A stretch of DNA of 32,000 nucleotides from Alkanindiges illinoisensis DSM 15370 (GTDB taxonomy: Bacteria; Pseudomonadota; Gammaproteobacteria; Pseudomonadales; Moraxellaceae). The notes beneath the pieces were generated by a model that ran no database searches, was not told the origin of the DNA, and saw nothing but the letters and a program-made list of their open reading frames with translations. The translations under genes were made by a program, and so were the position numbers. Shown here in pieces: positions 4,271 to 32,000 of the stretch. The first letter of the stretch is position 1, and the number at the start of each line of letters is the position of its first letter. The stretch covers positions 75,019 through 107,018 of the forward strand of contig NZ_JHUX01000009.1 in assembly GCF_000619845.1 (NCBI RefSeq), written 5' to 3'.

Positions 4271-6154
4271 ATGTCAAAAAAGTTAAGTCATATACTCTTA
4301 ATTGGAGTTGGTTTATTTTCATCAACTTGGGTAATGGCGGCAGTTAAAGAATATGATTTAACAATCGCTGAACAAACTGTAAATATCACAGGAAAACCAG
4401 TTGAGAGAATTACTGTAAATGGTAAATTCGTTGCACCACTTCTTGAATTTGAAGAAGGTGATGAGGCCGTTATCCGTGTTCACAATAAGTTAAAAAATCA
4501 GGACTCTTCAATCCATTGGCATGGCTTATTATTACCTGGAATTATGGATGGTGTACCTGGATTTAACAAATTTAATGGCATTGCCCCTAATAAAACTTAT
4601 GAATATAAGTTTAAAGTCCGCCAAAATGGTACTTATTGGTATCATTCACATAGTAAAGGACAAGAACAAGACGGTTTATATGGTGCTTTTGTTATTTATC
4701 CTAAAGATAAAATTCCACTAACAGCTGCTGAAAAAACCGATAAAGATTACGTTGTTTTGCTTTCTGATTTTCATAATTCAACAAGTGATCAAATTATGAA
4801 AAATCTTAAAAAAGAAGCAGATTACTATCAGAACCGTCGCGAAACAGTATTCGATGTATTAAAACAAGTTAAACGTGATGGATTAAAGGCAACTTGGCAA
4901 GACCGCTCTATGTGGAATCAGATGCGGATGTTGAAAACAGATATGTCCGATGTGACTGGTTATACATTTTTAATGAATGGCAAAACACCTCAGCAAAATT
5001 GGACCGGTAACTTCAAAGCTGGTGAAAAAGTTCGCCTTCGTTTTATTAATGCTTCCGCTATGTCATTCTTTGATGTACGCATTCCAAACCTAAAAATGAC
5101 TGTAGTCAGTGCTGATGGTCAACCTGTAAAGCCCGTTCCTGTAGATGAGTTCCGTATTGGTACTGCTGAAACCTATGATGTCATTGTGGAACCAAAACAA
5201 GCACATTACCAAATTGAAGCTGAATCTATTGATCGTACCGGTTTTTCAGTGGGAACATTACATGAAGAAAGCAGCCCAGCAGTCAAACAAATTGAGATGC
5301 CTAAATCTCGCCCTCGTGCTTTATTAACTATGGAAGATATGGGGATGAGCCATGACATGTCATCTATGAAAGATATGAATCACGATATGTCTTCTATGAA
5401 AGGCATGGATCATGATATGTCTTCAATGAAAGGTATGGATCATGATATGTCTTCAATGAAAGATATGAATCATGATATGTCTTCTATGAAAGGCATGAAT
5501 CACGATATGTCTTCAATGAAAGGTATGGATCATGATATGTCTTCTATGAAAGGTATGGATCATGATATGCCGATGAATAGCGCTACTGTTAAGGCGGCTT
5601 CAGACAAGAATGATAATACCGTATTTGGATGGGCAAATGCTTCAACACCTGAAGGTAATAAAGCATTGCAATATAGTGATTTGCAATCGTTAGATCCTCA
5701 AAAAGACACTCGTGCAGCTGAACGTGAAATAGAGATCCGTCTTGGTGGAAACATGGAGCGTTATATTTGGACAATAAATGGTAAAAAATTTAATGAAGCC
5801 GACCCACTAGTGGTGAAGTATGGTGAACGTATTCGCTTAAAATTTGTCAATGACAGTATGATGGCTCACCCAATGCACTTACATGGCATGTTTATGCAGC
5901 TTGAGAATGGTCAGGATCCAAGCAATATGCCAAACAAACATACGGTAATTGTTCCACCTGGGAAAACGATAACCACTCTACTCACAGCTGATGAGTTAGG
6001 TGAGTGGGCTATTCATTGTCACCTGCTTTACCATATGAGTGCAGGAATGATGAATAAACTCATTGTAGCTCAAGTGGAAGATGGTAATTCTACAAAGACT
6101 GTTCCTCAGTCCCAAGTAAATGAGAAGGGAGTAAATCCACATGCACATCACTAA
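4271..6154 (+). CDS. copA: Multicopper oxidase CopA/PcoA
   Basis: All four MCO copper-ligand motifs are present: HWHG (SIHWHGLL), WYHSH, HPMHLHG, HCHLLYHMSAGMM. There is a long Met/His-rich insert. An in-frame stop 9 nt upstream of the ATG fixes the start. Confidence 0.95.
   Translation: MSKKLSHILLIGVGLFSSTWVMAAVKEYDLTIAEQTVNITGKPVERITVNGKFVAPLLEFEEGDEAVIRVHNKLKNQDSSIHWHGLLLPGIMDGVPGFNKFNGIAPNKTYEYKFKVRQNGTYWYHSHSKGQEQDGLYGAFVIYPKDKIPLTAAEKTDKDYVVLLSDFHNSTSDQIMKNLKKEADYYQNRRETVFDVLKQVKRDGLKATWQDRSMWNQMRMLKTDMSDVTGYTFLMNGKTPQQNWTGNFKAGEKVRLRFINASAMSFFDVRIPNLKMTVVSADGQPVKPVPVDEFRIGTAETYDVIVEPKQAHYQIEAESIDRTGFSVGTLHEESSPAVKQIEMPKSRPRALLTMEDMGMSHDMSSMKDMNHDMSSMKGMDHDMSSMKGMDHDMSSMKDMNHDMSSMKGMNHDMSSMKGMDHDMSSMKGMDHDMPMNSATVKAASDKNDNTVFGWANASTPEGNKALQYSDLQSLDPQKDTRAAEREIEIRLGGNMERYIWTINGKKFNEADPLVVKYGERIRLKFVNDSMMAHPMHLHGMFMQLENGQDPSNMPNKHTVIVPPGKTITTLLTADELGEWAIHCHLLYHMSAGMMNKLIVAQVEDGNSTKTVPQSQVNEKGVNPHAHH
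5351..5569 (+). repeat. 30-bp in-frame tandem repeat (7 full units plus a partial one) encoding HDMSSMK[DG]M[ND]
   Basis: Units at 5351, 5381, 5411, 5441, 5471, 5501 and 5531 differ only at a few wobble or D/G/N positions. Confidence 0.95.
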
Positions 6155-10456: not shown

Positions 10457-13400
10457 ATGATTGCCCGTATTATTCGTTTTTCAATTGCGAATCGTGTATT
10501 TGTCCTGTTAGCCGCTTTAATTCTGGCTGCTTGGGGAACTTGGGCCGTAAAGAATACTCCGGTCGATGCATTACCAGATTTGTCTGATGTACAAGTAATT
10601 ATTCGAACTAATTTTTCTGGTCAGGCGCCACAAATTGTTGAAAATCAGGTGACCTACCCTTTAACAACAACCATGTTATCGGTACCTGGTGTTAAAACTG
10701 TTCGCGGTTATTCTTTTTTTGGTGACTCATTTGTTTATGTCATCTTTGATGAGCATACGGACCTTTACTGGGCCCGTTCTCGTGTATTGGAGTATCTAAA
10801 TCAAATTCAAGGGAAAATGCCTGCAAATGCGAAATCTTCATTGGGACCAGATGCCACTGGCGTTGGTTGGGTTTATGAATATGCATTGGTAGACCCAACA
10901 GGACAGCATGATCTTTCGGAGCTGAGAAGCATACAAGACTGGTTTTTAAAATATGAACTGAAGACATTACCTAATGTGGCTGAAGTTGCCACAATTGGGG
11001 GAATGGTTAAGCAATATCAGGTCATCTTAGACCCAAGCAAGATGGCTGCTTTAGGTGTCACACAAAACAATGTCATTGAGGCGATTCAAAAGGCTAATCA
11101 GGAAACTGGTGGTTCAGTTCTAGAAATGGCTGAAACGGAATATATGGTGCGAGCTTCTGGTTATTTAAAAACTTTAGATGATTTTCGCCAGATTCCACTA
11201 CGAACAAATAGTTTCGGTGTTCCTGTTTCTTTAGGTGATGTTGCAACTATTCAACTTGGTCCAGAAATGCGTCGTGGCATCAGTGAATTGAATGGGCAAG
11301 GTGAAACGGTTGGGGGTGTCGTGATTTTACGAGCAGGTAAAAATGCACGTGAAACGATTACTGCTGTGAAAGCGAAGCTAGCTGAATTACAACAAAGTCT
11401 ACCGAAAGGTGTACAAGTTGTTCCTGTATATGATCGCAGTCAATTGATTGATAGAGCAGTAGAAAATCTCAGCCATAAATTAATTGAAGAGTTCATTGTG
11501 GTGGCTTTAGTCTGTGGACTATTCCTCTGGCATTTACGTTCAGCAATGGTGGCTATTGTTTCTTTGCCGCTTGGGATTTTATCTGCTTTCTTGGTGATGC
11601 ATTATCAAGGGCTAAATGCCAATATCATGTCGTTGGGTGGTATTGCTATCGCGATTGGCGCTATGGTTGATGCTGCAATTGTAATGGTTGAAAATGCACA
11701 TAAGCATATCGAAACTTGGCAACACGAACATCCTGAGCAAGTCTTGGAAGCACAAGTCCGTTGGAACATCATTACACGTTCTGCCAGTGAGGTCGGGCCA
11801 ACTTTATTTTTCTGTCTACTCATCATTACCTTATCCTTCATTCCTATTTTTACTTTACAGGCACAAGAAGGTCGCTTGTTCTCACCACTGGCATTTACTA
11901 AAACCTATGCAATGGCAGCAGCAGCAGGTTTATCTATTACCTTGATTCCCGTTTTAATGGGTTATTGGATTCGAGGGAAATTACCTTCTGAACAGCGTAA
12001 TCCACTGAACCGTTTTCTGATCAAAATATACAGCCCTATGTTGGATAAGGTTTTAGCTCATCCAAAGACAATTTTACTTGGTGCATTGCTAATTTTCCTT
12101 ATTAGTCTTTTCCCTTTAACACGGTTAGGTGGGGAGTTTCTACCCAATATGGATGAAGGTGATTTACTGTATATGCCTTCAGCTTTACCGGGATTGTCCG
12201 CAGCAAAAGCTTCTGAGCTACTCCAACAGACTGATCGAATGATTAAAACCGTTCCTGAAGTTGCAACAGTATTCGGTAAAGCTGGTCGCGCTGAGTCAGC
12301 CACAGATTCTGCACCATTAGAAATGTTTGAAACCACGATTCAGTTCAAACCACGGTCTGAATGGCGTTCAGGTATGACACCTGACAAATTGATAAAAGAA
12401 CTAGATAAGGCAGTCCAAGTACCGGGTTTAACAAACATTTGGGTGCCACCTATCCGTAACCGGATTGATATGTTGGCAACTGGGGTGAAAAGTCCAATCG
12501 GGATTAAGATTTCAGCAAATGATCTGCAAGATATTGATCGGGTAGCACAGCAAATTGAACAAGTGGCTAAACAGGTGCCCGGTGTTAGTTCAGCTTTAGC
12601 TGAACGGCTCACAGGTGGTCGATATGTTGATGTCGATATTAACCGTATGCAGGCTGCGCGATATGGTCTCAATATTAAAGATGTACAGCAAATCGTCTCA
12701 TCAGCGATTGGCGGGGAAAATATTGGTGAAACTGTTGAAGGCTTGGCACGGTATCCCATTAATGTACGTTACCCACGAGAGATTCGAGATTCACTGGAAG
12801 CCTTAAGAAATTTACCGATTCTAACAGAATCTGGTCAACAAATAGTCTTGAGTAGTGTTGCTAATATTCAAATTACAGATGGGCCGCCAATGCTTAAAAG
12901 TGAGAATGCCCGTCCAAGTGGTTGGGTCTATGTCGATGTACAAGGACGTGACTTAGCTTCGGTTGTACAAGATTTGAAGCAGGCCATAGACCAAAAAGTA
13001 AAACGTTCTTCTGCCATGAGCATTAGCTATTCAGGACAGTTTGAGTTCATGGAGCGTGCGAATGCTCGCTTAAAAGTTGTTATTCCAATTACTTTGATGA
13101 TCATTTTTCTATTGCTCTATTTGATTTTTAGGCAAGTACAAGATGCTGTTCTGATTATGGCAACACTACCTTTTGCGTTGATTGGTGGTATTTGGGCTAT
13201 GTACTTGAGTGATTATCACTTTTCGGTTGCGATTGCTGTTGGTTTTATTGCACTTGCTGGTGTTGCCGCAGAGTTTGGTGTAGTCATGTTGTTCTATTTA
13301 AAGCAAGCAATTGAGCATGCACAGCAAAGCCTATCTTCTTCAACGGCATCCTTAACAGAGCAACAACTCAATGAGGCAATTCATACAGGGGCCGTGCTAC

Positions 13401-13603
13401 GTGTTCGCCCTAAAGCAATGACAGTCGCTGTCATTTTGGCGGGGTTAATCCCTATTCTGTTGGGGACTGGAACAGGTTCTGAATTAATGAGTCGTATTGC
13501 TTTACCTATGGTTGGGGGCATGATTTCAGCCCCTCTCTTATCTATGTTTGTTATCCCTGCGGCATATCAGCTTTTAATCAAAAGAAAACTATCAAAGAAT
13601 TGA
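10457..13603 (+). CDS. cusA: Heavy-metal efflux RND pump CusA (Cu(I)/Ag(I) type)
   Basis: 1048 aa with the 12-TM RND architecture and a typical HME-RND N-terminus ([18 protein letters not shown]...). Positioned in the cusC-cusB-cusA-cusF order. Confidence 0.95.
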
Positions 13604-16992: not shown

Positions 16993-17171
16993 CAGTTAGC
17001 GCTAAGGCATGACCAGCAATTAGCCAGTATCAGGCCAGCACGCTGCTGTTTGAGTCATTATGCCTGTTTCAGTATAACCACTATGCATAGTGTAGCCCCT
17101 TTGCTGGCGTGGCATAGAGGTTGCTTCTTTTATTTCTTATAAAACACCGTGTAACGATGCAGAGCTGATCT

Positions 17172-17747
17172 CAATACCGAGGTTGGTTCATCCAGAATGA
17201 GCAGTGCCGGGTTTTGTAGCAAGCAGCGTACGATTTCTACCCGTTGCCGCTCCCCAACCGATAAACTATGGACAGTGCGTTTGGGATCAAGCGGCAGGCC
17301 ATATTTTTCCGATACCTCAATCACCCGGGCTGACAGTGCCGCCAGCTCAAATTTTCCCTCGAGTCCCAGCGCGATATTTTCCGCCACGGTCAGGGTTTCA
17401 AACAGGGAAAAATGCTGATACACCATGCCAATTCCTATGCGGCGCGCTGCTGCCGGGCTCTCAATGCTGACTGAACGGCCATTCCAGATGATTTCACCCT
17501 CATCAGCTGTGGCCGCGCCATAAATGATTTTCATCAGGGTACTTTTGCCTGCCCCGTTTTCACCCAGAACCGCATGAATTTCGCCCACCCCCACCTTTAA
17601 ACTGATATGGTCATTGGCAAGCAGCGCGTTATAGCGTTTGGTGATATTGACCAGTTCCAGACGCGGCGGTGCGTTTTCAGCAATGGGGTGCTGTGCTGTA
17701 GTAATTTCACCTATAAGCGGATTTTTAGTGCAATCAGCGCTGTTCAT
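17172..17747 (-). pseudogene. Truncated ABC transporter ATP-binding protein (N-terminal half of a duplicated-ATPase sugar/nucleoside-type importer)
   Basis: Walker A GENGAGKST, Q-loop, signature LSVGERQR and Walker B LILDEPTSVL are followed by unrelated residues RSALHRYTVFYKK and a stop. The second ATPase half expected for this family is missing. Homology is lost at about 17171/17172. Confidence 0.8.
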
Positions 17748-17794
17748 GTTTAAAACTTCTCCAACGTTCACCAGCCTTTTGCAATTGCTAAATA

Positions 17795-18475
17795 CATTGC
17801 CAGCCAGGGCTGGCTGCCAATCAGGCTGCGTGTGGTCTGGCACTCACCATTTTTGGGGTAGGCCTGTCGGCGTTCATCGGGCAAAGCTTTGTCAGTACCA
17901 GTTTGCCCGGTTTACAGCCGTTAAGCATTCCCGGCCTGTCTACAATTCCCTTTATTGGCCCGGTTCTATTTCACCAAAACTATGTGGTGTACCTGTCGAT
18001 GATTGTGCTGTTGCTGGTCTGGTGGGTATTGGCAAAAACCCGTTTGGGGCTACTGCTCAAGGCAGTGGGCGAGTCGCCAGAGTCAGCACATGCCATGGGC
18101 TACCGTGTACTAGCCATCCGCTATGGTGCGGTACTTTTTGGGGGGGCGATGGCCGGAATTGGCGGGGCATTTTTATCTACGGTCTATACGCCGCTCTGGG
18201 TAGAAAACATGGTGGCAGGTCGTGGCTGGATTGCCATTGCACTGGTGGTATTTGCAACATGGAAGCCGCTGCGCCTGATGCTCGGGGCTTATTTGTTTGG
18301 TGGAGTGACCATCCTGCAATTTCATGCGCAGGCATTGGGGGTTGAGGTGCCTGTCGAGTTACTGGCGGCACTGCCGTATCTGGCAACCATTATAGTGCTG
18401 GTGATGATTTCCCGTGACCATAAATTATTGCGGATGAATCTCCCGGCATCACTCGGCAAATCATTTTTGCCTTAA
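17795..18475 (+). pseudogene. Truncated ABC transporter permease (C-terminal part only)
   Basis: The frame is open from 17792. The translation ...NQAACGLALTIFGVGLSAFIG...LLKAVGESPESAHAMGY...GRGWIAIALVVFA... is typical of the C-terminal half of BMP/ribose-type permeases. There is no N-terminal half and no start context. It abuts the 5' end of the inverted ATPase fragment. Confidence 0.75.
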
Positions 18476-18905: not shown

Positions 18906-19352
18906 CTAGATGTTGCTTTTATTGTCTTTGCGGCCAACCGTAAACAGAAAACGGCCGATGCAAACCAGCTTGTCATCAAGCAGTAACTGAACGGATACTG
19001 TGGTAATGCGCCGGCCAGCACGAACAATGCTGGGTATGGCCTGCAAAGTTCCCTTAAACGCTGGCCGCAGGTAATCAAAGGTCATTGTCGAGCATAAGGG
19101 AAGCGTAGCATCGCCGCGCTGACGGGCCAGATAGGCTGCTGCAGCCACTTCACCAAAGCTTGCAAGAATGCCACCATGAAAGGTTCCAATCATGGGATTG
19201 CCGATATGCGAATCACGGAAATCCATAAAGTAGCGTGTTTCTCCATTTTGCAGTTCTTCGCGAAAACCCAGAAACTCGACAAACGGCTCGTCATACAGGC
19301 TCAGGGCCGCGGTGCCGGGTGTATCGGCGCTGTTGTGCTTTACAATACTCAT
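18906..19352 (-). CDS. PaaI/hotdog-fold thioesterase (second of a tandem pair)
   Basis: I place the start at the ATG at 19352 (MSIVKHNSADTPG...). The central GTFHGGILASFGEVAAAAY matches the PaaI/4HBT-type HGG motif. The 19475 start in the track over-extends into the upstream gene. Confidence 0.75.
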   Translation of the reverse strand: MSIVKHNSADTPGTAALSLYDEPFVEFLGFREELQNGETRYFMDFRDSHIGNPMIGTFHGGILASFGEVAAAAYLARQRGDATLPLCSTMTFDYLRPAFKGTLQAIPSIVRAGRRITTVSVQLLLDDKLVCIGRFLFTVGRKDNKSNI

Positions 19353-19353
19353 A

Positions 19354-19815
19354 TCAGTGGTCTCGCACTTCATTGTCAAAGGCAGGCCCCATTGTGCCAA
19401 TAGCAAAAGAGCCAGCCGCTGTTGCCAGCAGTTCGCCACTTTCTTCTGCAAACGCACGGCCGGTAATAAAGGCAACTGTATCTGTCCTGCCGATGCAATC
19501 CACTACAGCCTTTAAACCCATTGCCGCGGGAATGCTACGTAGAAAATCGACACGCAAATCAATGGTGGCAATTGGTTCCAAAGAGCGCAATGATGAAAAA
19601 ATAGACAAGCCGCACGTGGTATCAAGCAGTGTTACCAGGGCTCCCCGGTGCAGCGCACCCTTACGGTCCGCCAGTTGTTCAGAGAAGGGCATGCTCATTT
19701 CGGCATGACCATTGCTCACGGCGCCGACATTAATATTGAACATATTGAACAACGCATGATTCGTCCCAAAAAACGCTTTAGCCATCGTAAGATGTGTCGC
19801 GTTATTACCGTCCAT
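19354..19815 (-). CDS. PaaI/hotdog-fold thioesterase (first of a tandem pair)
   Basis: GALHRGALVTLLDTTCG motif, about 150 aa. The stop is 1 nt from the next ATG (TGAtATG). GGGAG RBS. Confidence 0.75.
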   Translation of the reverse strand: MDGNNATHLTMAKAFFGTNHALFNMFNINVGAVSNGHAEMSMPFSEQLADRKGALHRGALVTLLDTTCGLSIFSSLRSLEPIATIDLRVDFLRSIPAAMGLKAVVDCIGRTDTVAFITGRAFAEESGELLATAAGSFAIGTMGPAFDNEVRDH

Positions 19816-19870: not shown

Positions 19871-20839
19871 TCAGAGTGCAAGGGCGGCATCTACATAATT
19901 GCGCTCTGTCTGCATGACCGCAAAAATTGCCGCTTCAATGGCAGCATGCGGAAAGTCCGGGCTTTCAGAAGCCGATTTCAGGCACATGGCTAAAGCAGTC
20001 CATGTTTTTTCACAAGCCCGCATTAACAACGGCAACTGCTGCTGCTGTACACCGGCGTTATAGTGAATCGCCTCATCAAGGAACTCGGCATACATTTTCC
20101 GGAACCCGCCGCCACCTGTTCCACGCTTCTCGATGACCTGATAGGCAAAGCGGGTGGTCCAGTGCCAGTCACCTGTGCTGCCCCAGCGCCCAAGGTCATC
20201 TAGCCAGGTTTGCAGGGCCGATAGACCCCCTGTGGCTAATGAGCTGGCATTGTCACGGATGACCTGGGTGATTATCTCGGGCGTAATGTGCCCTTGAAAT
20301 GCGTTCGGGGTGAACATGTTGCCATGATGAATAAACGGCGGCTGCGTAGAAAATCGCGCGCGCGTGAGAGCCTGTTCGCTCACGGACAGCACATCAGGGC
20401 GCTCAGTGTCAGTAACCAGAATCTCGCCCGTCTCTGGGTTTTTCGACCAGGCCGCAATGGCGTGACCGGGAAAGTGAGTGGTGCTGTTAAAGTAAGGCAG
20501 GTAAAAAATATCTGTCAGCAGCAGGGTGGGGCGTCCCGCATCCAGGCAGTTGCCAAGCGCTACGGCTGCCAACTCGGGGGAATCGAAAGTTTGCCATTCA
20601 AAAGGTATGCCCAGGCTTTGAAATACGCGTGCTTCAAATCCCAGGGAACGCACATGCACTAAAAATGGCACAGGGGCATCCGCCGCTAGCTCCAGGTAAG
20701 TCACCCCAAGCCCTGAACCTAATCCAAGGCACATGGCCTCAGAAATAGTCAGCCCATTAAATTCAAGCAGGTCACGAATTGCAGAGCTGCCACAATGTCT
20801 CCCGATGGCATGGGTAATTTGAACATCCCGTTTCTTCAC
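19871..20839 (-). CDS. BtrH-like protein (BtrH N-terminal Cys-peptidase-fold domain plus DUF4872-type C-terminus)
   Basis: The N-terminal HAIGRHCGSSAIRDLLEFNG pattern (candidate nucleophile Cys) and overall length match the butirosin BtrH-like family, as far as I recall it. A GTG start overlaps the TetR stop (GTGA). Confidence 0.6.
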   Translation of the reverse strand: MKKRDVQITHAIGRHCGSSAIRDLLEFNGLTISEAMCLGLGSGLGVTYLELAADAPVPFLVHVRSLGFEARVFQSLGIPFEWQTFDSPELAAVALGNCLDAGRPTLLLTDIFYLPYFNSTTHFPGHAIAAWSKNPETGEILVTDTERPDVLSVSEQALTRARFSTQPPFIHHGNMFTPNAFQGHITPEIITQVIRDNASSLATGGLSALQTWLDDLGRWGSTGDWHWTTRFAYQVIEKRGTGGGGFRKMYAEFLDEAIHYNAGVQQQQLPLLMRACEKTWTALAMCLKSASESPDFPHAAIEAAIFAVMQTERNYVDAALAL

Positions 20840-21474
20840 AGGTTTTTTGCCTCGTCGTGAAAATCCATATTAAGTATGCCTCTTGTCATCATTTGCCATA
20901 TGGCATCAGCGATTTGTTCAAGATTGTACTTTCCATTGTCCTTATACCAGGTGGCCGCCCAATTGATGGCGCCTAGGCCAATAAGCCTTAACAGATCCAC
21001 ATCCACATCCTTACGGATAAAACCCTGAGTCTTCAGCTCATTTAGGATGGCGTGCCAATATTGTTCGTATCGGTCTCGTTCGGCGATCATCTGCTCACGT
21101 GCGGCACCATGGAGCGAGCGCCACTCAAACAAAAGCACATATACCATATCATCACCAGACATGAGTACATTAAGATGGGCGTGCAGTGCCGATTTCATTT
21201 TTTTTAGAGGATCCTGGATCATTGAGGTTGCTTCAATGATCCCGTGGATAGTTCTTTCAATGGCCAGCTGCATCATATCAACCAGAATATCATCCTTACT
21301 GCGATAGCGATAATGAAGGCTGCCGGGAAGAATGCCGCAAGCCCTTGCAATTTCTCGGACGCTTGCACGCTCAAAACCCTTTTCCCGGAACAGCCTGGCA
21401 GAGGCAGCGAGCACTCTTTCGCGGTCTGTAACCTCGACTCGAGCAGATTCTCGACTTAACACGGCTTCACTCAT
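20836..21474 (-). CDS. TetR/AcrR-family transcriptional regulator
   Basis: N-terminal HTH ILAASARLFREKGFERASVREIARACGILPGSLHYRY, about 210 aa. Confidence 0.9.
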   Translation of the reverse strand: MSEAVLSRESARVEVTDRERVLAASARLFREKGFERASVREIARACGILPGSLHYRYRSKDDILVDMMQLAIERTIHGIIEATSMIQDPLKKMKSALHAHLNVLMSGDDMVYVLLFEWRSLHGAAREQMIAERDRYEQYWHAILNELKTQGFIRKDVDVDLLRLIGLGAINWAATWYKDNGKYNLEQIADAIWQMMTRGILNMDFHDEAKNL

Positions 21475-21541
21475 ACTATGGTATCAGACCAATATAATAC
21501 TCGATTTAGTCGTGTAAAATCTTCCAGCACTTCTGCTTATT

Positions 21542-22411
21542 TTATGCTGCCGCCGCAATTGGAATGTTAAAAACAATTCGCGAAGCTTCCATGGGGTCCT
21601 GATGCTTGTCATATTCTGCCAGCCAGGCACTGACTTTTTCCGGGATACCTGTATCAGCAGGGTGGAAGCCCGGTTTAAACCAGTCCAGATAGCGTGGAAT
21701 AAGTCTGGTAATCAGGCCACGTGGCCCATACAGCCGATAAAACCCTTTGGCAAGCACTAAGGGCTGACCTTGCATTTTATCAACCTTTAGCATATGCCAA
21801 AGCACCGAGCCCACAACGGCATGCACTAGCACAGTGCCTACAATCAGGGCGGACGTGCGTATGAAATAGCCACCACCTGCTGCTTTTTCATACACATCAA
21901 AGGCCACCGCCTTGTGTTCGACTTCTTCTACACCGTGCCACATGTACATGGCGCGCATGGCGGGATGGGCGTTCTTGAACATCTCACCTTCATCGTCCAT
22001 AAAGCCTTCGCCCAGTGTGGCGGTAATGTGTTCAAAGGCAGCTGTCATGGCCAGCTGATACTTGGCAGGCAGGTGTTTCTGGAATACCTGAATAAAAAGC
22101 TTTAATCGGGATATGACTTTTTCGACATGAATGCCCTGCGCCTGCATCACAGCATTATACTGGTCATGCACGATACCGTGTTGGGCTTCCTGACGGAAAA
22201 AGTTTTTGATATCTGCTCTGAGCGTGGGATCGGTGACCTGATTTTCATAGTTGCGTACCGACTGAATAAAAAACCGCTCGCCATCGGGGAAGTGAATAGA
22301 AAGCGCGTCAAAGAAACGCGTCAAAACAGGATCGCCATCGTTCCAGAAAACGGGAACGTCACTTAAGGCAAACCGCGGCTTGCGCGGCTGAATAGTCATT
22401 AGATGCGTCAT
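21542..22411 (-). CDS. 'Predicted metal-dependent hydrolase'-family protein, paralog 1 (paired ExxH motifs)
   Basis: 289 aa with motifs HFPDGERFF, FRQEAQHG, AAFEHIT, GVEEVEHK and a hydrophobic C-terminal stretch. Highly similar to the 25311-26135 product. AGGAG RBS. Confidence 0.7.
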   Translation of the reverse strand: MTHLMTIQPRKPRFALSDVPVFWNDGDPVLTRFFDALSIHFPDGERFFIQSVRNYENQVTDPTLRADIKNFFRQEAQHGIVHDQYNAVMQAQGIHVEKVISRLKLFIQVFQKHLPAKYQLAMTAAFEHITATLGEGFMDDEGEMFKNAHPAMRAMYMWHGVEEVEHKAVAFDVYEKAAGGGYFIRTSALIVGTVLVHAVVGSVLWHMLKVDKMQGQPLVLAKGFYRLYGPRGLITRLIPRYLDWFKPGFHPADTGIPEKVSAWLAEYDKHQDPMEASRIVFNIPIAAAA

Positions 22412-22542
22412 GGTAAAGGTCTCCTTTAAAGCGATTAAACGGACGTAGACCTGCTATCAGCTTTGCCCTCAGGGGCGAGACAGGTCATGAGTTACCGTCT
22501 GAACCAAAGTCAGACTGACTGCTCGGTCAAGTTCAAATTAGC

Positions 22543-22571
22543 ACTATATTGGTCAATTGACCAAATGTCAA
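22543..22571 (-). promoter_or_regulatory. Consensus-like sigma70 promoter with an operator palindrome as spacer (promoter A)
   Basis: The minus strand reads TTGACA-TTTGGTCAATTGACCAA-TATAGT, i.e. -35, a 17-bp spacer and -10. The spacer contains the perfect 16-bp palindrome TTGGTCAATTGACCAA (22549-22564). Confidence 0.8.
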
Positions 22572-22649
22572 ACCCGCCTTCGTCAGCACTGCGTTATAAA
22601 TCTGTACAGGAACTCTGGCTGATGCAGAGTGCAGGCGATATGAGTTGTG

Positions 22650-23861
22650 TTAACGGCCGGTCAGTGCACCCAGAAGATTTTTTGCTTCGGAATGGCTCAT
22701 GTATTTCGGCACGGCATAGGTGCCATGCGCCTCGGCAAATGCAGCATTTGCCATGGCTTCAAAGTCGCTGCTGTTCATGCCGGGAATACGCGTATCAATG
22801 TTTAACTCAACAAGCAGTGCCTTGACATGGGCGATAAGGGCGTCAGTTGCTTTTGCATCACTAACGCTGGCCTCAGCGAGGCCAGTCTGCCGGGCCAAAG
22901 CTGCCAGGCGCTGGCGTGATGCCTTGCGGTTAAACTCAAGGATATGCGGCATCACAATTGCATTTGCGCGGCCATGGGGGATGCCATAGTAGGCGCCGAG
23001 CTGGTGTGCAATGGCATGAATATAGCCAAGACCTGCCTGATTTAGCGCCAGACCTGCATAATGGGAGGCCAGGGCCATGGCTTCGCGTGCATTCAGGTTG
23101 TTGCCATCACGCCAGGCCAGTGGCAGGTTTTCAAAAATCAGGCGAATTGCTGCACCCGCGTAATAGTCACTTTCTGGCGAAGCAAATTCACTGACCCAGG
23201 CCTCCAGTGCATGGGTTAAGGCATCAAGGCCGGTATCGGCCGTCACGGAACGTGGCATGCCCTGCATGATTTTTGGATCCAGCGCAGCAGCAAGCGGCAC
23301 CAGCTTCGGGTCAATGACCAATCCTTTCTGGTGGGACTGGTTGTCAGAAAGTACTGCGCCGATACTGACTTCCGATCCCGTTCCTGCGGTGGTGGGTATG
23401 ACAAACAAGGGTAGTGAGCGCTTGCTGCCCTTGAATATGCCAATCAGTTCTTGTGGGGTTTTTTTGTTGGTGGCTGCCAGGGCAATGACCTTGGCTGCAT
23501 CAATCGATGAGCCGCCACCGACGGCCAGCACACTGTCGCAATGAGACGACTGTAGTACTGACAGCCCGTCTTCAACCACACGAATGGTAGGGTCAGGGCT
23601 AACCCCGGAAAACACCGAGGTCTGGATACCATGCTGTTTGAGCGCCTTCTCCAGCGGCTGGATCAAACCCAAGTCATACAGGATTTGATCAGTAACAATC
23701 AGCACATGACTGACCCCGAGATGGGAGATGGTTGAGCACAGCCTGAGTGCCGAATCGGGGCCGACCAGGACAAGAGGACGCGGGACAGGCACAATGCGGA
23801 TAACCAGTTTAAGCGCAGCCAGCTGTGCTTTTGCCTTTAGGATAGTGGTCAGGATTGCCAT
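22650..23861 (-). CDS. Iron-containing (group III) alcohol dehydrogenase
   Basis: GGGSSIDAAK, TTAGTGSE and the His-rich metal site (HAIAHQLGAYYGIPHGRANA) are typical of the Fe-ADH family. Confidence 0.9.
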   Translation of the reverse strand: MAILTTILKAKAQLAALKLVIRIVPVPRPLVLVGPDSALRLCSTISHLGVSHVLIVTDQILYDLGLIQPLEKALKQHGIQTSVFSGVSPDPTIRVVEDGLSVLQSSHCDSVLAVGGGSSIDAAKVIALAATNKKTPQELIGIFKGSKRSLPLFVIPTTAGTGSEVSIGAVLSDNQSHQKGLVIDPKLVPLAAALDPKIMQGMPRSVTADTGLDALTHALEAWVSEFASPESDYYAGAAIRLIFENLPLAWRDGNNLNAREAMALASHYAGLALNQAGLGYIHAIAHQLGAYYGIPHGRANAIVMPHILEFNRKASRQRLAALARQTGLAEASVSDAKATDALIAHVKALLVELNIDTRIPGMNSSDFEAMANAAFAEAHGTYAVPKYMSHSEAKNLLGALTGR

Positions 23862-23966: not shown

Positions 23967-25163
23967 CTACGCTGCTTCGTGATCCAGTTCTTGCACCATT
24001 TGCTCGCCACTCACTTCCGGCGCGGCCTGACCGGAAAAGTAAATGCCCAGGCCTGCTTTTTCATAGTGCGGGCGAATGCGGTCAGACAGCAGGCCAATTT
24101 CCCGGATATTTGGCACCAGCCGGGTAAACATGGTTTTGCGGAAACGCTGCATGCCTGGTGAGTTCATGATCAGTTGGCGCCATTGATCCCTGCTCACGCT
24201 GGTTCCGTCAAACCATTCTTCATAGACTTCATAAGCCATAAACCGGTTACGCATCAGAAGTGCCACTTCATAGGCCCAGTCTTCGCGCTCATTCCGTTCT
24301 GATTTGGAGATGCCGTAATTGATGTGTTCTTTGAGTGCCAGCACCCCGTAATGAACGTGCCGCGCTTCATCCTGAATCACGTATTTTAGCAATTCCTTGA
24401 GCAACGGTTCTTTGGTGCTTTGATACAAAAAGCCAAAGGCGCCCAGTGCCAATCCCTCAACCATGATCTGCATGCCAAGAAATTTCAGGTCCCAGCGCGA
24501 ATCTGTCATCAAGGCATCGATAATGACAAACAGGTTGTCGTTGATGTGATACATTTTGCCCAGTTTTTCAGTTAGATAGCGATGGAAAACCTCGACATGA
24601 CGGCCTTCATCCATAACCTGAGTGGAACCATAGAGCTTTCCATCAAAAAAGCTTACAGATTCGGTCACCTGTGCGGCAGCCAGCAAGGCGCCCTGCTCAC
24701 CATGCAGAAACTGGGACAGCATCCAGCTGGACATGGAGTGCACCATGCGTGGCTGGTCCTTGCTGTCCAGCCTGATGCCCAGTGCTGTGGCAGCATTCAG
24801 GTCAATAAGGTCCAGGGGAGCGATGGGCAGGTCGGGATTTAATGGATCCACCGGGGTATGCCAGGGTAAATCAGAACCATTCCACTGGCCGCGTTTGGCG
24901 CGCTCATAAAGCGCATGCATTTCAGGATGGTCATGCGGGTAGGCCCAGTTGAAATGTGCGGCATGGGCTGCCGGCATGTCGGTGGTATCACTACGCTTGC
25001 CCACACTAAAAAGCAGCCCACGCACGGCAGAGGGCGCTATGGCGCGCATGACACTAGGGCTTTTCATCGATGCAAAAATGTCGGCGGCTTCCATAAGGCC
25101 ATCGACACGGTTTTTGAGGTGGCCAGGTAAAATGTTTCGAATGCTATCAAGGGGAGTGTTCAT
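23967..25163 (-). CDS. Ferritin-like di-iron carboxylate oxygenase (AurF-like family), substrate unknown
   Basis: Two E...(D/E)ExRH motifs are present: HGEQGA...MDEGRHVE and MVEGLA...QDEARHVHYG. There is an N-terminal extension of about 130 aa. Confidence 0.7.
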   Translation of the reverse strand: MNTPLDSIRNILPGHLKNRVDGLMEAADIFASMKSPSVMRAIAPSAVRGLLFSVGKRSDTTDMPAAHAAHFNWAYPHDHPEMHALYERAKRGQWNGSDLPWHTPVDPLNPDLPIAPLDLIDLNAATALGIRLDSKDQPRMVHSMSSWMLSQFLHGEQGALLAAAQVTESVSFFDGKLYGSTQVMDEGRHVEVFHRYLTEKLGKMYHINDNLFVIIDALMTDSRWDLKFLGMQIMVEGLALGAFGFLYQSTKEPLLKELLKYVIQDEARHVHYGVLALKEHINYGISKSERNEREDWAYEVALLMRNRFMAYEVYEEWFDGTSVSRDQWRQLIMNSPGMQRFRKTMFTRLVPNIREIGLLSDRIRPHYEKAGLGIYFSGQAAPEVSGEQMVQELDHEAA

Positions 25164-25336
25164 GAGATGTCTCCGGTGGGGGTGATAGGGCTTGGGGGGT
25201 CAACTTCAAACGTAACGGCAGTCAAGGGCCGGCTGATGCACGCCAATGCGTAATGGGCCTTGCGTTCCTCCGGCATCAGACAATTCGGTTCATCCATGTC
25301 AACTTCGCCGTTAAGAATTTTCACGCGACAGCGCCC
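25160..25336 (-). pseudogene. Remnant of a plant-type [2Fe-2S] ferredoxin domain (last ~58 codons only)
   Basis: The minus-strand frame gives GRCRVKILNGEVDMDEPNCLMPEERKAHYALACISRPLTAVTFEVDPP...*. The last Cys of the C-x4-C-x2-C cluster is present and the fourth ligand Cys lies 30 residues later, but the first two Cys are missing. The stop overlaps the oxygenase start (ATGA). Confidence 0.7.
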
Positions 25337-26135
25337 ATTCAGCCAGCCAAGAATTAACCTTTTCTGGGATTTCGGTGTCGCTAGGATGGAAACCTGGCTT
25401 AAACCAGTCCAGATAGCGTGGAATAAGTCTGGTAATCAGGCCACGTGGTCCATAGAGGCGATAAAATCCCTTAGCAAGCACCAATGGCTGACCTTGTAGT
25501 TTGTCAATTTTCAACATATGCCAAAGAACTGAGCCAACCACCGCATGTACCAGTAGCGTTCCGATAATCAAAGCAGATGCGCGGGTGAAATACCCCCCAC
25601 CTGCCGCTGTTTCGTAAACATCAAAGGCTACTGTTTTGTGTTCGACTTCTTCTACCCCATGCCACATGAACATGGCACGCATTGCGGGATGAGCATTCTT
25701 GAACATCTCACCCTCACCCTCCATAGCACCCTCGCCTAGTACAGCAGTAATATGTTCAAAGGCAGCTGTCATGGCCAACAGATACTTGGCGGGCAGGTGT
25801 TTTTGGGAGAGCCGAATAAATAATTTGAATCTTGCGATGACCTTTTCGACATGAATGCCTTGCGACTGCATCACCGCATTATACTGGTCATGCACAATGC
25901 CATGTTGCGCTTCTTGGCGAAAAAAGTTTTTGATATCTTCTCTCAGTTTAGGATCTGTGACCAGATCCTGATAGTTACGCACCGACTGAATAAAAAAACG
26001 CTCTCCATCGGGGAAGTGAATAGAAAGTGCATCAAAGAAGCGTGTTAACACCGGGTCACCGTCGTTCCAAAAAACTGGAACATCACTTAAATCAAACCGC
26101 GGCTTACGTGGCTGGATATTGATCATATGAGTCAT
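25311..26135 (-). CDS. 'Predicted metal-dependent hydrolase'-family protein, paralog 2 (C-terminus replaced at a deletion junction)
   Basis: Start at MTHMINIQPRKPRF (ATG at 26135); the 26201 start in the track is an over-extension. By eye it is collinear and roughly nine-tenths identical to paralog 1 as far as ...WLAE. It then diverges (WALSRENS*) at about nt 25337. Confidence 0.7.
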   Translation of the reverse strand: MTHMINIQPRKPRFDLSDVPVFWNDGDPVLTRFFDALSIHFPDGERFFIQSVRNYQDLVTDPKLREDIKNFFRQEAQHGIVHDQYNAVMQSQGIHVEKVIARFKLFIRLSQKHLPAKYLLAMTAAFEHITAVLGEGAMEGEGEMFKNAHPAMRAMFMWHGVEEVEHKTVAFDVYETAAGGGYFTRASALIIGTLLVHAVVGSVLWHMLKIDKLQGQPLVLAKGFYRLYGPRGLITRLIPRYLDWFKPGFHPSDTEIPEKVNSWLAEWALSRENS

Positions 26136-26254
26136 GGCGAGAGTTTCCTTGTAAAGGCATCGAATGTCTGTAAACCTGCTATCACATTTGACCTTGAGCA
26201 ATATTTTTCACCTTGGTCAGGCACAGCAAATATCACACAAGAATTCAACGGGTA

Positions 26255-26270
26255 TTGGTCAAATGACCAA
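26255..26270. promoter_or_regulatory. Additional operator copy TTGGTCAAATGACCAA (operator B)
   Basis: Same 7-bp arms (TTGGTCA/TGACCAA) as the promoter palindromes. It lies just downstream of the predicted start site of promoter C. Confidence 0.65.
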
Positions 26271-26284
26271 ATGCATATTTTGAA

Positions 26285-26313
26285 TATATATTGGTCGATT
26301 GACCAAATGTCAA
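26285..26313 (-). promoter_or_regulatory. Consensus-like sigma70 promoter with an operator palindrome as spacer (promoter C)
   Basis: The minus strand reads TTGACA-TTTGGTCAATCGACCAA-TATATA. The geometry is the same as promoter A, with one arm mismatch in the palindrome. Confidence 0.8.
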
Positions 26314-26477
26314 GCCTGTCCTCAAAATTTGATAGAATGAGTTAACAACGCAGCAGGTGAGCCAGATCATCTTTGACATCGAATATAGCTACCAGACCTT
26401 TTGGCAGAGGTGTTTTTTTAATGTTAGTTTTTTTACATTAGAGTGTGTTGACGTTTGAAAATATTGATTGCAAATTG

Positions 26478-27022
26478 GAGGCAGACTCAGAGAATTAAAG
26501 CTCTCCCCATCCGAGTCCACCATGCCACGCTTTATGCTGAACGACCAACATTGAGCAAAGATTTCTCCTATGCTCAAGCAACAGGACATTGATCACAAAC
26601 CAAATTTACGGCTCACCGTAGAAGCCATGCTCTACAGAATGTGGGTGAAATGTCCATGGCTAGACCTACCTCCTGACTGAGTTTGGTCAGCAGCCTAATC
26701 TCTACAAAAGATACAACGACTGGTCAGCAAAAGGTTTTTTCCAAAGCATACTCAGGGTTTTATCTACTGACTCTGATATAGAGTAGGGGTTATGGATAGC
26801 AATTACGTCAAGGCACATCAACATAATGCACGTGCTGCAACTCACGATCAGGAGGCGATTGGCTTAAGTCGAGGTAGCAAGACAAGTAAGATCCATCTTG
26901 CCGTAGATGGGTATGGATTACCCATCGTGTTTGCGATCACGGGTGGTGAATTACACAAAGCCAAAGCTGCACCTGACTTGCTCTCACAGGTATCTATCGA
27001 TGCCATTCTGATTAACATCTGA
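26478..27022 (+). pseudogene. Degraded, 3'-truncated IS5-family (IS427/IS1031-like) transposase / IS remnant
   Basis: From the ATG at 26522 the translation is MPRFMLNDQH*AKISPMLKQQ...LRLTVEAMLYRMWVKCPWLDLPPD*. After frame breaks it continues MDSNYVKAHQHNARAA...AIGLSRGSKTSKIHLAVDGYGLPIVFAITGGELH. This is the conserved IS5-family order but carries stops and frameshifts and lacks the C-terminal third. The left-end coordinate is approximate. Confidence 0.7.
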
Positions 27023-27060
27023 ATCAGCGTAATGCAAATCTAGCCTGATGTAGTTTTAAG

Positions 27061-31419: not shown

Positions 31420-31626
31420 GGTTGTTCGTATGATTGTTAATACGTTGAAACATCAATACGCCCTAGAAAAATACCTTAAAACGCTATGTCAGAGATGGCA
31501 ATCATATGGCAGCCCTCCACTTCCAATCCGATAACCTCAACTCAACCCAACGCTTGCAACCCGCTGTGAACTCTGTAGAGGTTTTAATTCCCATTGCAGC
31601 CCATCCACCGTCAATGTCTTCAGTTA

Positions 31627-31664
31627 GGGGTCGTCTCAGGAAACGGAAAATATAGCACGCTAAG
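31627..31664 (+). repeat. 38-bp terminal inverted repeat of a Tn3-family (Tn21-subgroup-like) transposon; the outer end is at 31627
   Basis: GGGGTCGTCTCAGGAAACGGAAAATATAGCACGCTAAG. By my recollection it differs at only two positions from the Tn21-type IR GGGGTCGTCTCAGAAAACGGAAAATAAAGCACGCTAAG. It has the canonical GGGG...ACGCTAAG ends. Confidence 0.8.
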
Positions 31665-32000
31665 GATTTTCACTCCGACTTCTTTTAACGATATCCAACA
31701 CGGTATTTTTGCTTAGATTGACCAGCCGACCGACTTGTCGATAAGAGTGTCCAGCAGACACCAACTCCAACACTTTAGGTGCCAGACGATCTGACTTGGT
31801 ACGTTGACCAGGACGACGACCAAACACAACGCCCCGCGCTTGTGCCGCTGCTACACCAGAGCGCACACGTTCACGTAGTAAATCTCCCTCAAACTCTGCT
31901 AATGCAGACATCACAGAAGCCATGAGCTTTCCCTGAGATGTGGAAAGGTCAAACTGCAAACCTGTTTGTGCCACCAGAGATACCCCGAAATGCCCAAGAT
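31660..32000 (-). CDS. tnpR: Serine recombinase / resolvase (TnpR-like); the 5' end runs off the window
   Basis: ...LQFDLSTSQGKLMASVMSALAEFEGDLLRERVRSGVAAAQARGVVFGRRP...AGHSYRQVGRLVNLSKNTVLDIV shows a resolvase catalytic-domain C-terminus plus HTH. The frame stays open to nt 32000. The stop TAG (31662-31660) lies inside the IR. Confidence 0.8.
   Translation of the reverse strand, partial: LGHFGVSLVAQTGLQFDLSTSQGKLMASVMSALAEFEGDLLRERVRSGVAAAQARGVVFGRRPGQRTKSDRLAPKVLELVSAGHSYRQVGRLVNLSKNTVLDIVKRSRSENP

Follow-up and report, generated by a model that had tools for sequence, protein, structure and literature searches.

Why does one stretch of Alkanindiges illinoisensis DSM 15370 DNA carry the same palindrome-bearing promoter twice, which protein would recognise the palindromes, and how did the two copies come to lie together? 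The stretch analysed (32,000 nucleotides of contig NZ_JHUX01000009.1, hereafter the window) encodes on its minus strand, in order, a ferredoxin (Fdx), a CYP153-type P450 and a ferredoxin reductase (FdR) with a divergent AraC regulator, then an IS5 remnant, promoter B, the PF10118 gene hydB, a di-metal oxidase (ferr), an iron-containing alcohol dehydrogenase (ADH; adh), promoter A, a second PF10118 gene (hydA), the regulator gene tetR, a BtrH-like acyltransferase and two PaaI-type thioesterases. An earlier reading of the bare letters, referred to here as the original prediction, had seen in the two promoters a mini-regulon that arose when promoter and first gene were duplicated together. The reading that we favour overall, with a probability of about 0.8, is that promoter B is a sigma-70 promoter repressed by TetR through two operators, O1 and O2, and that the two copies were joined by the fusion of two related gene clusters of Acinetobacter, both tied to alkane oxidation.

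Two promoters with a common palindrome

Promoter B was confirmed letter by letter as the original prediction had read it, with TTGACA, a spacer palindrome and TATATA between 26313 and 26285 on the minus strand. The -35 hexamer TTGACA (26308..26313) is followed by a single T and by operator O1, TTGGTCAATCGACCAA (26291..26306, minus strand reading 26306-26291), a perfect 6-4-6 palindrome that occupies the entire spacer up to the -10 hexamer TATATA (26285..26290; 17-bp spacer). An alternative -10 hexamer, TATATT (26283-26288), would give a 19-bp spacer. TATATA lacks the conserved final T, so it was passed over by the promoter scan; in close relatives, the -10 hexamer is TATATT with a 17-bp spacer. 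The further palindrome that had been claimed downstream is also present. A palindrome search returned O2, TTGGTCATTTGACCAA on the minus strand (26255..26270), a perfect TTGGTC-N4-GACCAA site that starts 36 bp downstream of the O1 start, with 20 bases separating the two, and lies at about +8 to +23 counted from the predicted transcription start. When 37 distinct sequences of orthologous promoters were compared, 36-37 had TTGACA as the -35 hexamer, and O1 is found at the equivalent position in 52 of 79 orthologous loci. The length of the (TA)n tract in the -10 region (window 26283-26290) varies among near-identical Acinetobacter loci, with the variants TATATATTC, TATATTTC or TATATTC (window vs. 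L002, L005, L006, L007, and L088); this variation alters both the fit of -10 and spacer and the O1–O2 distance (36, 35, or 34 bp), and it could tune promoter strength.

Promoter A (22543..22571, minus strand; read from the sequence and found by the promoter scan) consists of TTGACA (22571-22566), a T, the single operator TTGGTCAATTGACCAA (22549-22564) inside the 17-bp spacer, and TATAGT (22548-22543). With agreement at 11 of 12 positions, it was the top sigma-70 match of the scanned region. A second operator was sought at promoter A and rejected: the position corresponding to O2 holds a decayed remnant, TTGAACTTGACCGAG, with at least six mismatches in any register. The window contains exactly three perfect TTGGTC-N4-GACCAA sites, namely O1, O2, and the site in promoter A. 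When up to two mismatches were allowed, six sites were found against 1.1 expected, a number reached in none of 100 shuffles. The remaining three sites look like chance occurrences, and the two-mismatch site at 26683 falls within the IS5 remnant.

The two copies were compared by aligning 21480-22700 with 25250-26450. A block of ~34 nt, GG.TTGACATTTGGTCAAT.GACCAATATA, is shared over the -35 hexamer, the operator, and the -10 hexamer and differs at two positions, which bears out the original prediction that the flanks of the site in promoter B are conserved at 22543-22571. After this block a leader of about 75-95 nt fails to align, and homology restarts 58 nt before the ATG and continues to codon 266/267 of the PF10118 gene. 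The similarity is thus not confined to the palindrome but spans promoter and gene, with 80.8% DNA identity over 858 bp and 87% protein identity between HydA and HydB over 267 residues; upstream of the -35 hexamer, the alignment showed no similarity between the copies. A 15-nt leader element, TGATAGCAGGTYTAC, lies ~35 nt before the ATG in both copies (22445-22459 and 26170-26184). It was rejected as a regulatory footprint, as it occurs only in copies A and B and partly in locus L009, while neither L001, whose Hyd is 88% identical, nor more remote loci have it; it probably reflects residual homology and no regulatory role. An Rfam scan of the entire window at gathering thresholds gave 0 matches, and a known RNA element does not explain the conserved pieces of the 5' leader.

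The regulator gene tetR (20836..21474, minus strand) encodes a TetR/AcrR-family protein (TetR_N and TetR_C_24) with an N-terminal helix-turn-helix (PF00440, E 6e-14, residues 22-65) and a C-terminal ligand-binding and dimerisation region (PF17932, E 4e-26; also PF08359), and the protein matched 83 TetR relatives in the PDB. Both the spacer sites and the site at +8 to +23 are inverted repeats of the ~15-16-bp class that overlap a promoter. The link between this regulator and the palindrome was evaluated in 79 loci with TetR orthologues of 50-88% identity, drawn from Acinetobacter, Agitococcus, Fluviicoccus, Perlucidibaca, Alloalcanivorax, Alcanivorax, Ketobacter, and various metagenome-assembled genomes, and gathered with two peptide patterns, one of which was the recognition helix LPGSLHYRY. 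The module TTGACA-T-TTGGyy-N4-rrCCAA, searched as TTGACA-N-TTGG-N8-CCAA with at most one mismatch, gave 56 matches in 52 of the 79 loci, compared with 0-1 matches in five block-shuffled copies of the 1.34 Mb. Every match closely precedes a PF10118 gene or tetR, also in loci without an adjacent hyd gene (L012, L013, L015, and L019), and the motif precedes tetR or the neighbouring PF10118 gene in both co-directional and divergent arrangements. In upstream alignments of relatives whose Hyd is 74-88% identical, conservation is restricted to O1 and O2, which stand out as islands. Moreover, the operator cores TTGG/CCAA are invariant among the orthologous loci while the central 4 nt vary freely, indicating protein recognition rather than RNA pairing. 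In an independent protein search, the recognition helix LPGSLHYRY was invariant in 19 diverse homologues. This comparative evidence is strong, and we read the TTGGTC-N4-GACCAA palindrome as the putative operator of the window's TetR. The earlier proposal that two promoters with the same operator form a small regulon linked to the tetR gene downstream is likewise strongly backed by the comparison over the 79 loci.

Two other explanations of the palindromes were weighed against this assignment. In one, they are bound by a different protein, such as the neighbouring AraC-type regulator or a TetR- or GntR-type fatty-acid regulator from another locus, and tetR is merely co-located. Alloalcanivorax loci, in which the site adjoins the AraC gene and lies 6 kb from tetR, would suit such a binder. 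However, the search that gathered the loci went by tetR, and the motif tracks this gene even where no hyd gene adjoins it, and the invariant recognition helix matches an invariant TTGG/CCAA core. A 6-4-6 inverted repeat also suits a TetR dimer, as in the Thermus regulator PfmR, whereas AraC-type activators usually use direct repeats, and a pattern search of the window found no operator sites near the CYP153 and AraC promoters, the AraC/Fdx intergenic region included. A binder other than TetR is judged unlikely. In the other explanation, the palindromes work mainly as DNA or RNA hairpins, that is, as a terminator or a stem-loop at the 5' end of the mRNA. The terminator scan does flag O1 of promoter B, with a 6-bp stem and a T-rich tail, and O2 would be transcribed and might form a 6-bp hairpin at the 5' end of the mRNA. 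Yet a 6-bp stem with three G-C pairs is very weak, O1 lies between a consensus -35 hexamer and a -10 hexamer and not at a gene end, and the TTGG..CCAA half-sites stay constant, with no compensatory changes, around four central nucleotides that vary freely. A main role as hairpins is hardly credible on these grounds.

Origin of the two copies

A standard CYP153 locus comprises an AraC gene, Fdx-P450-FdR and, behind promoter B, hyd-tetR-btrH-paaI-paaI. In L003-L008 (A. indicus, A. proteolyticus, A. haemolyticus, and other representative genomes), a full-length hyd gene follows promoter B directly; the promoter matches that of the window base for base in L003, L004, and L008, and the other loci of this group differ in the (TA)n tract only. 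FdR and HydB of the window show 100% protein identity to their counterparts in the standard locus, HydB through residue 267, and the regulator encoded after hyd in the standard locus is 83% identical to the window's TetR. All 45 of 45 matching Acinetobacter plasmids carry a single-copy CYP153 locus without ferr-adh, and in the two plasmids whose flanks were inspected, the CYP153 cluster is associated with Tn3-like ISAcsp1 copies.

An exact look-up of the ADH protein revealed two arrangements. The donor type, present in five contigs (L080, L083, L084, L085, and L087), runs reductase-ferr-adh-promoter A-hydA-tetR-btrH-paaI-paaI without CYP153 genes; its reductase has FAD_binding_6, NAD_binding_1, and Fer2 domains, and the reductase stop overlaps the oxidase start. 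The window type was found in three contigs (L081, L082, and L086) at 99.9% identity. The window from 25349 to 14317 is 99.83% identical to L080, and the sequence of promoter A is unchanged in the donor-type loci L080 and L083-L087.

The recombination junction was placed at 25337..25349 (both strands) by blastn breakpoints and a three-way comparison: homology to the standard CYP153 locus stops at 25337, homology to the reductase-oxidase cluster begins at 25349, and the two sides share only the microhomology GGCTG..T. The gene hydB (25311..26135, minus strand; PF10118, labelled 'metal-dependent hydrolase', Pfam E 1.3e-78) is cut off here at codon 266 and continues out of frame into the terminal, 2Fe-2S-encoding part of the reductase gene, which gives it the foreign tail ALSRENS*, whereas full-length Hyd relatives have a C-terminus ending in AEYDKHQDPMEASRIVFNVPIAKAV. 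The 3' remnant of the FNR-like reductase gene (25164..25336, minus strand; 2Fe-2S domain) is untranslated or out of frame. It is 99.8% identical to L080 8515-8702, where a FAD_binding_6/NAD_binding_1/Fer2 gene of 425 aa ends, and is also homologous to L012 18154-18313.

The alternative to a fusion is a tandem duplication of promoter and PF10118 gene in situ, followed by divergence and by recruitment of ferr-adh between the copies. The modules are indeed homologous from the -35 hexamer to codon 266/267, share one orientation and lie 3.7 kb apart, as such a duplication would leave them. Nevertheless, the copies are not each other's closest relatives, nor are their boundaries homologous or repeat boundaries. 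Each copy is matched at 99.8-100% in a different single-copy cluster, compared with 80.8% between A and B, and this indicates a fusion and not a local duplication. The Hyd region of L009, from a different organism, is nearer to copy B (88.8% DNA identity) than copy A is; furthermore, copy B stops at a non-homologous junction within the reductase remnant, and the donor arrangement with an intact reductase occurs in five independent contigs. A duplication in situ is consequently rated very unlikely. What stands of the proposed joint duplication of promoter and first gene is the homology of the copies; that they were duplicated in place does not stand. By the aligned sequences, the two copies are diverged versions of one module, which a deletion or an illegitimate recombination has recently joined.

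Lost in the fusion were the part of the CYP153 cluster operon past codon 266 of hydB (tetR, btrH, and both paaI genes) and most of the reductase gene, of which a 173-nt remnant stays. The di-metal oxidase is therefore left without its adjacent partner. The donor promoter region was lost as well, together with a tandem operator-like array, TTGGCCATGCGGCCAAATTAGTGCTAAATTA, that precedes the FNR-like reductase gene (31-bp unit, 3.3 copies, 79% matches; L080 7326-7428, also L083, L084, L085, and L087). Each unit of the array resembles a weak promoter (TTGGCC, 18 bp, TAAAAT). In the donor, promoter A is already internal and single-operator, the same as in the window, so the combination of many upstream operators and one internal operator is native to the donor cluster. 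By this comparison, the fusion exchanged the three-unit array for the promoter with O1 and O2.

Some observations on the surroundings of the standard cluster are added here. In the A. haemolyticus plasmid L088, a standard CYP153 cluster lies between two ISAcsp1 copies (1-601 and 10615-13581) and looks like a composite transposon. The last 375 bases of the window (31626-32000) are 100% identical to a stretch that L004 and L006 carry downstream of their clusters, and positions 1-2202 of L082 were noted alongside the ISAcsp1 flanks and this terminal segment.

Proposed repression from two operators

Homodimers of TetR would bind the 16-bp TTGGTC-N4-GACCAA sites at O1 and O2, as expected from the behaviour of the TetR family. 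A dimer on O1 would cover the spacer between -35 and -10 and so block the binding of RNA polymerase, and a dimer on O2 would impose a second, independent block on open-complex formation or promoter escape. The gene tetR lies downstream of both promoters on the same strand, 5 kb from promoter B, which would subject it to negative autoregulation from promoters A and B. The terminator scan found no terminator-like sites in the gap between adh and promoter A or in that between hydB and ferr; taken with the position of tetR, this suggests negative autoregulation with probable readthrough from promoter B into the operon of promoter A. The surviving TetR would have to control promoter B, which evolved with the 83%-identical orthologue. 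In their DNA-binding regions, the two regulators differ at three positions, all outside the recognition helix LPGSLHYRY, which is identical in both. Because the operator half-sites and the recognition helix are identical, cross-recognition of promoter B is plausible, and the window's TetR probably acts on it. The trigger for derepression would most likely be formed during alkane oxidation, as a fatty acyl-CoA or a closely related fatty-acyl metabolite. Acyl-CoA is probably the effector, a best guess held with moderate confidence that draws on the relatives of TetR and on the neighbouring thioesterase, acyltransferase, and ADH genes.

Among the orthologous promoters, at least 17 distinct ones carry a second site 31-38 bp past O1 (start to start), and all of them drive tetR-containing operons, either hyd-tetR-btrH-paaI-paaI or tetR-btrH-paaI-paaI; promoters of distant PF10118 paralogues have one site. 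The confinement of the pair to tetR operons, with single sites at the paralogue promoters, indicates that O1 plus O2 is the ancestral layout of the autoregulated operon. The original prediction had taken the double operator as a means of holding the oxidase/ADH operon more tightly than the one containing the regulator. This idea of a double site built for the oxidase and ADH and a single one for the regulator was not upheld, because the O1 plus O2 promoter natively drives the tetR operon in the at least 17 relatives, and the donor oxidase and ADH genes sat behind a different array, of three to four operators. A strict helical phase between O1 and O2 was ruled out by the 31-38 bp range, and even near-identical Acinetobacter sequences show spacings of 34, 35, or 36 bp owing to their (TA)n differences. 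The variable spacing argues for two independent blocks instead of phase-dependent cooperativity; that two sites repress more tightly than one is plausible.

Several points weigh against a TetR-repressed promoter B as set out above. The variable spacing speaks against cooperativity on one face of the helix, and tighter repression would not be guaranteed. The -10 hexamer of promoter B in the window is suboptimal, whether TATATA or TATATT at a 19-bp spacer is used. The strict module is missing from 27 of the 79 loci, and loci of Alcanivorax sensu stricto keep merely a degenerate site at the corresponding position. The invariance of the helix among the collected loci is partly selected, as LPGSLHYRY served as a collection pattern. 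The effector would be assigned solely from family resemblance and gene neighbourhood. Finally, the literature searches yielded no binding, expression, or transcription-start results for the TetR regulator, and nothing on the regulator, the operator half-sites, or the function of PF10118.

The nearest solved relatives of TetR (PfmR, 3VPR; 5K7F; KstR2; and B. subtilis FadR; E 1e-13 to 1e-32) belong to the group of TetR proteins linked to fatty acids and CoA thioesters. PfmR, KstR2, and Bacillus FadR-type regulators respond to CoA thioesters. The best NCBIfam match was the Bacillus-type FadR (NF053878) at 75.3 bits against an equivalog cut-off of 200, which makes the window's TetR a relative and not a member. 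It shares with Bacillus-type FadR (YsiA; PDB 1VI0 and 3WHB) and KstR2 the type of C-terminal domain, TetR_C_4/TetR_C_24, and, by prediction, the repression of lipid-catabolic operons from promoter-overlapping operators, while operator sequence and regulon differ, the latter here comprising PF10118, the di-metal oxidase, and the BtrH-like protein. The effector of FadR and KstR2 is acyl-CoA, which would fit the thioesterase, acyltransferase, and ADH genes of the operon. Steric occlusion, two dimers per promoter region, and autoregulation are also known from Tn10 TetR (tetO1/tetO2) and QacR (IR1). The tet operators, however, lie between divergent promoters at a fixed spacing, and QacR places two dimers on a single long site, whereas here two separate 16-bp sites, 31-38 bp apart at variable distance, serve one co-directional operon.

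PfmR (TTHB023 of Thermus thermophilus HB8, PDB 3VPR) is among the closest solved relatives with a described site (E 2.7e-24). It belongs to the TetR family and represses fatty-acid and phenylacetate metabolism, and its homodimer binds a 16-bp 6-4-6 palindrome, CTGACCGATCGGTCAG, with nanomolar affinity; PfmR is autoregulated, and two PfmR promoters carry two sites each (PMC7022988). The 16-bp 6-4-6 palindrome, the two-site promoters, and the autoregulation proposed here resemble that system. The half-sites differ, however, with GACC...GGTC in PfmR and GGTC...GACC here, and so do the target genes. The kinship is at family level and not one of orthology, and binding and effector are experimental for PfmR and predicted from sequence here.

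A functional parallel is AlkX of Dietzia sp. DQ12-45-1b. This TetR protein is autoregulated and represses the alkW1 alkane hydroxylase operon; C10-C24 fatty acids, which are products formed downstream, release it, so that induction depends on product (PMC8784404). Both are autoregulated TetR repressors, in our case by prediction, encoded within an operon linked to alkane oxidation. In contrast to the window's regulator, AlkX comes from an actinobacterium and has the hydroxylase gene itself as its target; here TetR would control accessory genes adjoining a CYP153 operon that lacks an operator and comes with an AraC-type regulator of its own. An AlkX chain was not named among the 60 PDB matches listed. 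Judged by its sequence, the system is an uncharacterised member of a well-known kind, namely an autoregulated TetR repressor of lipid- and alkane-linked genes that acts at a promoter-overlapping 16-bp palindrome.

PF10118, the di-metal oxidase, and neighbouring genes

PF10118 is the most constant operator target across the 52 loci and usually lies beside CYP153 clusters. The full-length copy in the window, hydA (21542..22411, minus strand; 289 aa), matches the family with Pfam E 1.5e-79. Residues Glu45, Glu75-x-x-His78, His82, Glu127-His128, Glu135, Glu162, Glu165-His166, His197, and His250 are invariant in PF10118, so that its conserved Glu/His motifs include ExxH twice and EH. The AlphaFold model is all-helical and of high confidence, with a predicted local distance difference test (pLDDT) value of 91.7. 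A PDB sequence search with PF10118 gave no match, and a Foldseek search with the model gave weak matches (E >=0.05, template-modelling score 0.40-0.45), with ferritin-like di-metal proteins making up nearly all of the top ranks (CmlI, R2lox, ribonucleotide reductase R2, and aldehyde-deformylating oxygenase). Going by the model, the 'hydrolase' label of PF10118 may be wrong.

These observations admit a broader, speculative proposal that we consider doubtful as a whole: a conserved, unstudied product-sensing circuit of TetR, operator, and PF10118 would accompany CYP153 clusters in Moraxellaceae, Alcanivoracaceae, Ketobacter, and relatives, with PF10118 as a new ferritin-like di-metal oxygenase or oxidase acting on alkane-derived fatty-acyl intermediates. 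If this were true, the operator would be a portable, ready-made sensor part for products of alkane oxidation. At the level of the comparison itself, a specific operator, TTGGTC-N4-GACCAA in a consensus promoter, can be provisionally assigned to an uncharacterised TetR; in marine oil-degrading bacteria and on many Acinetobacter plasmids, its gene adjoins those of the CYP153 alkane hydroxylase. This opens the regulon to direct testing, and promoter, operator, and repressor offer a compact set for biosensors of hydrocarbon-oxidation products. In addition, through the fusion a di-metal oxidase and an alcohol dehydrogenase came under the promoter of another cluster and a single repressor was left over two promoters of different ancestry, a small and clean case of regulatory rewiring by rearrangement, although unsurprising in kind.

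The ferritin-like di-metal oxidase gene ferr (23967..25163, minus strand; 398 aa) has its own GGAG ribosome-binding site, and its product shows weak matches to AurF, R2-like ligand-binding oxidase (R2lox), and aldehyde-deformylating oxygenase. It is followed by adh (22650..23861, minus strand; Pfam Fe-ADH and ADH_Fe_C). Downstream of tetR and on the same strand, Pfam and NCBIfam identified the btrH-like acyltransferase gene (19871-20839), which overlaps tetR by 4 nt, and the two PaaI-type thioesterase genes (19354-19815 and 18906-19352); the order tetR-btrH-paaI-paaI is kept in ~30 orthologous loci. The 750-bp spacer between the reductase gene of the CYP153 operon and promoter B (26320-27060) is filled by the IS5-family transposase remnant (26792..27022, plus strand), which was recognised from its open reading frame (ORF) translation, and plasmids are annotated with 'IS5 family transposase' at the matching place before promoter B.

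In L001, a Moraxellaceae metagenome-assembled genome, a third perfect operator, TTGGTCTTACGACCAA, with ATAACAT before it, lies at 4529-4544 downstream of the second thioesterase gene and precedes ~3.5 kb of genes, which suggests further members of the regulon. Downstream of the operon in the window are ABC-transporter genes (17130-18475) with an ATPase ORF of 237 aa and a permease ORF of 190 aa; at the corresponding place in L087 the ABC-transporter genes are intact (540, 368, and 305 aa), and those of the window are probably pseudogenes.

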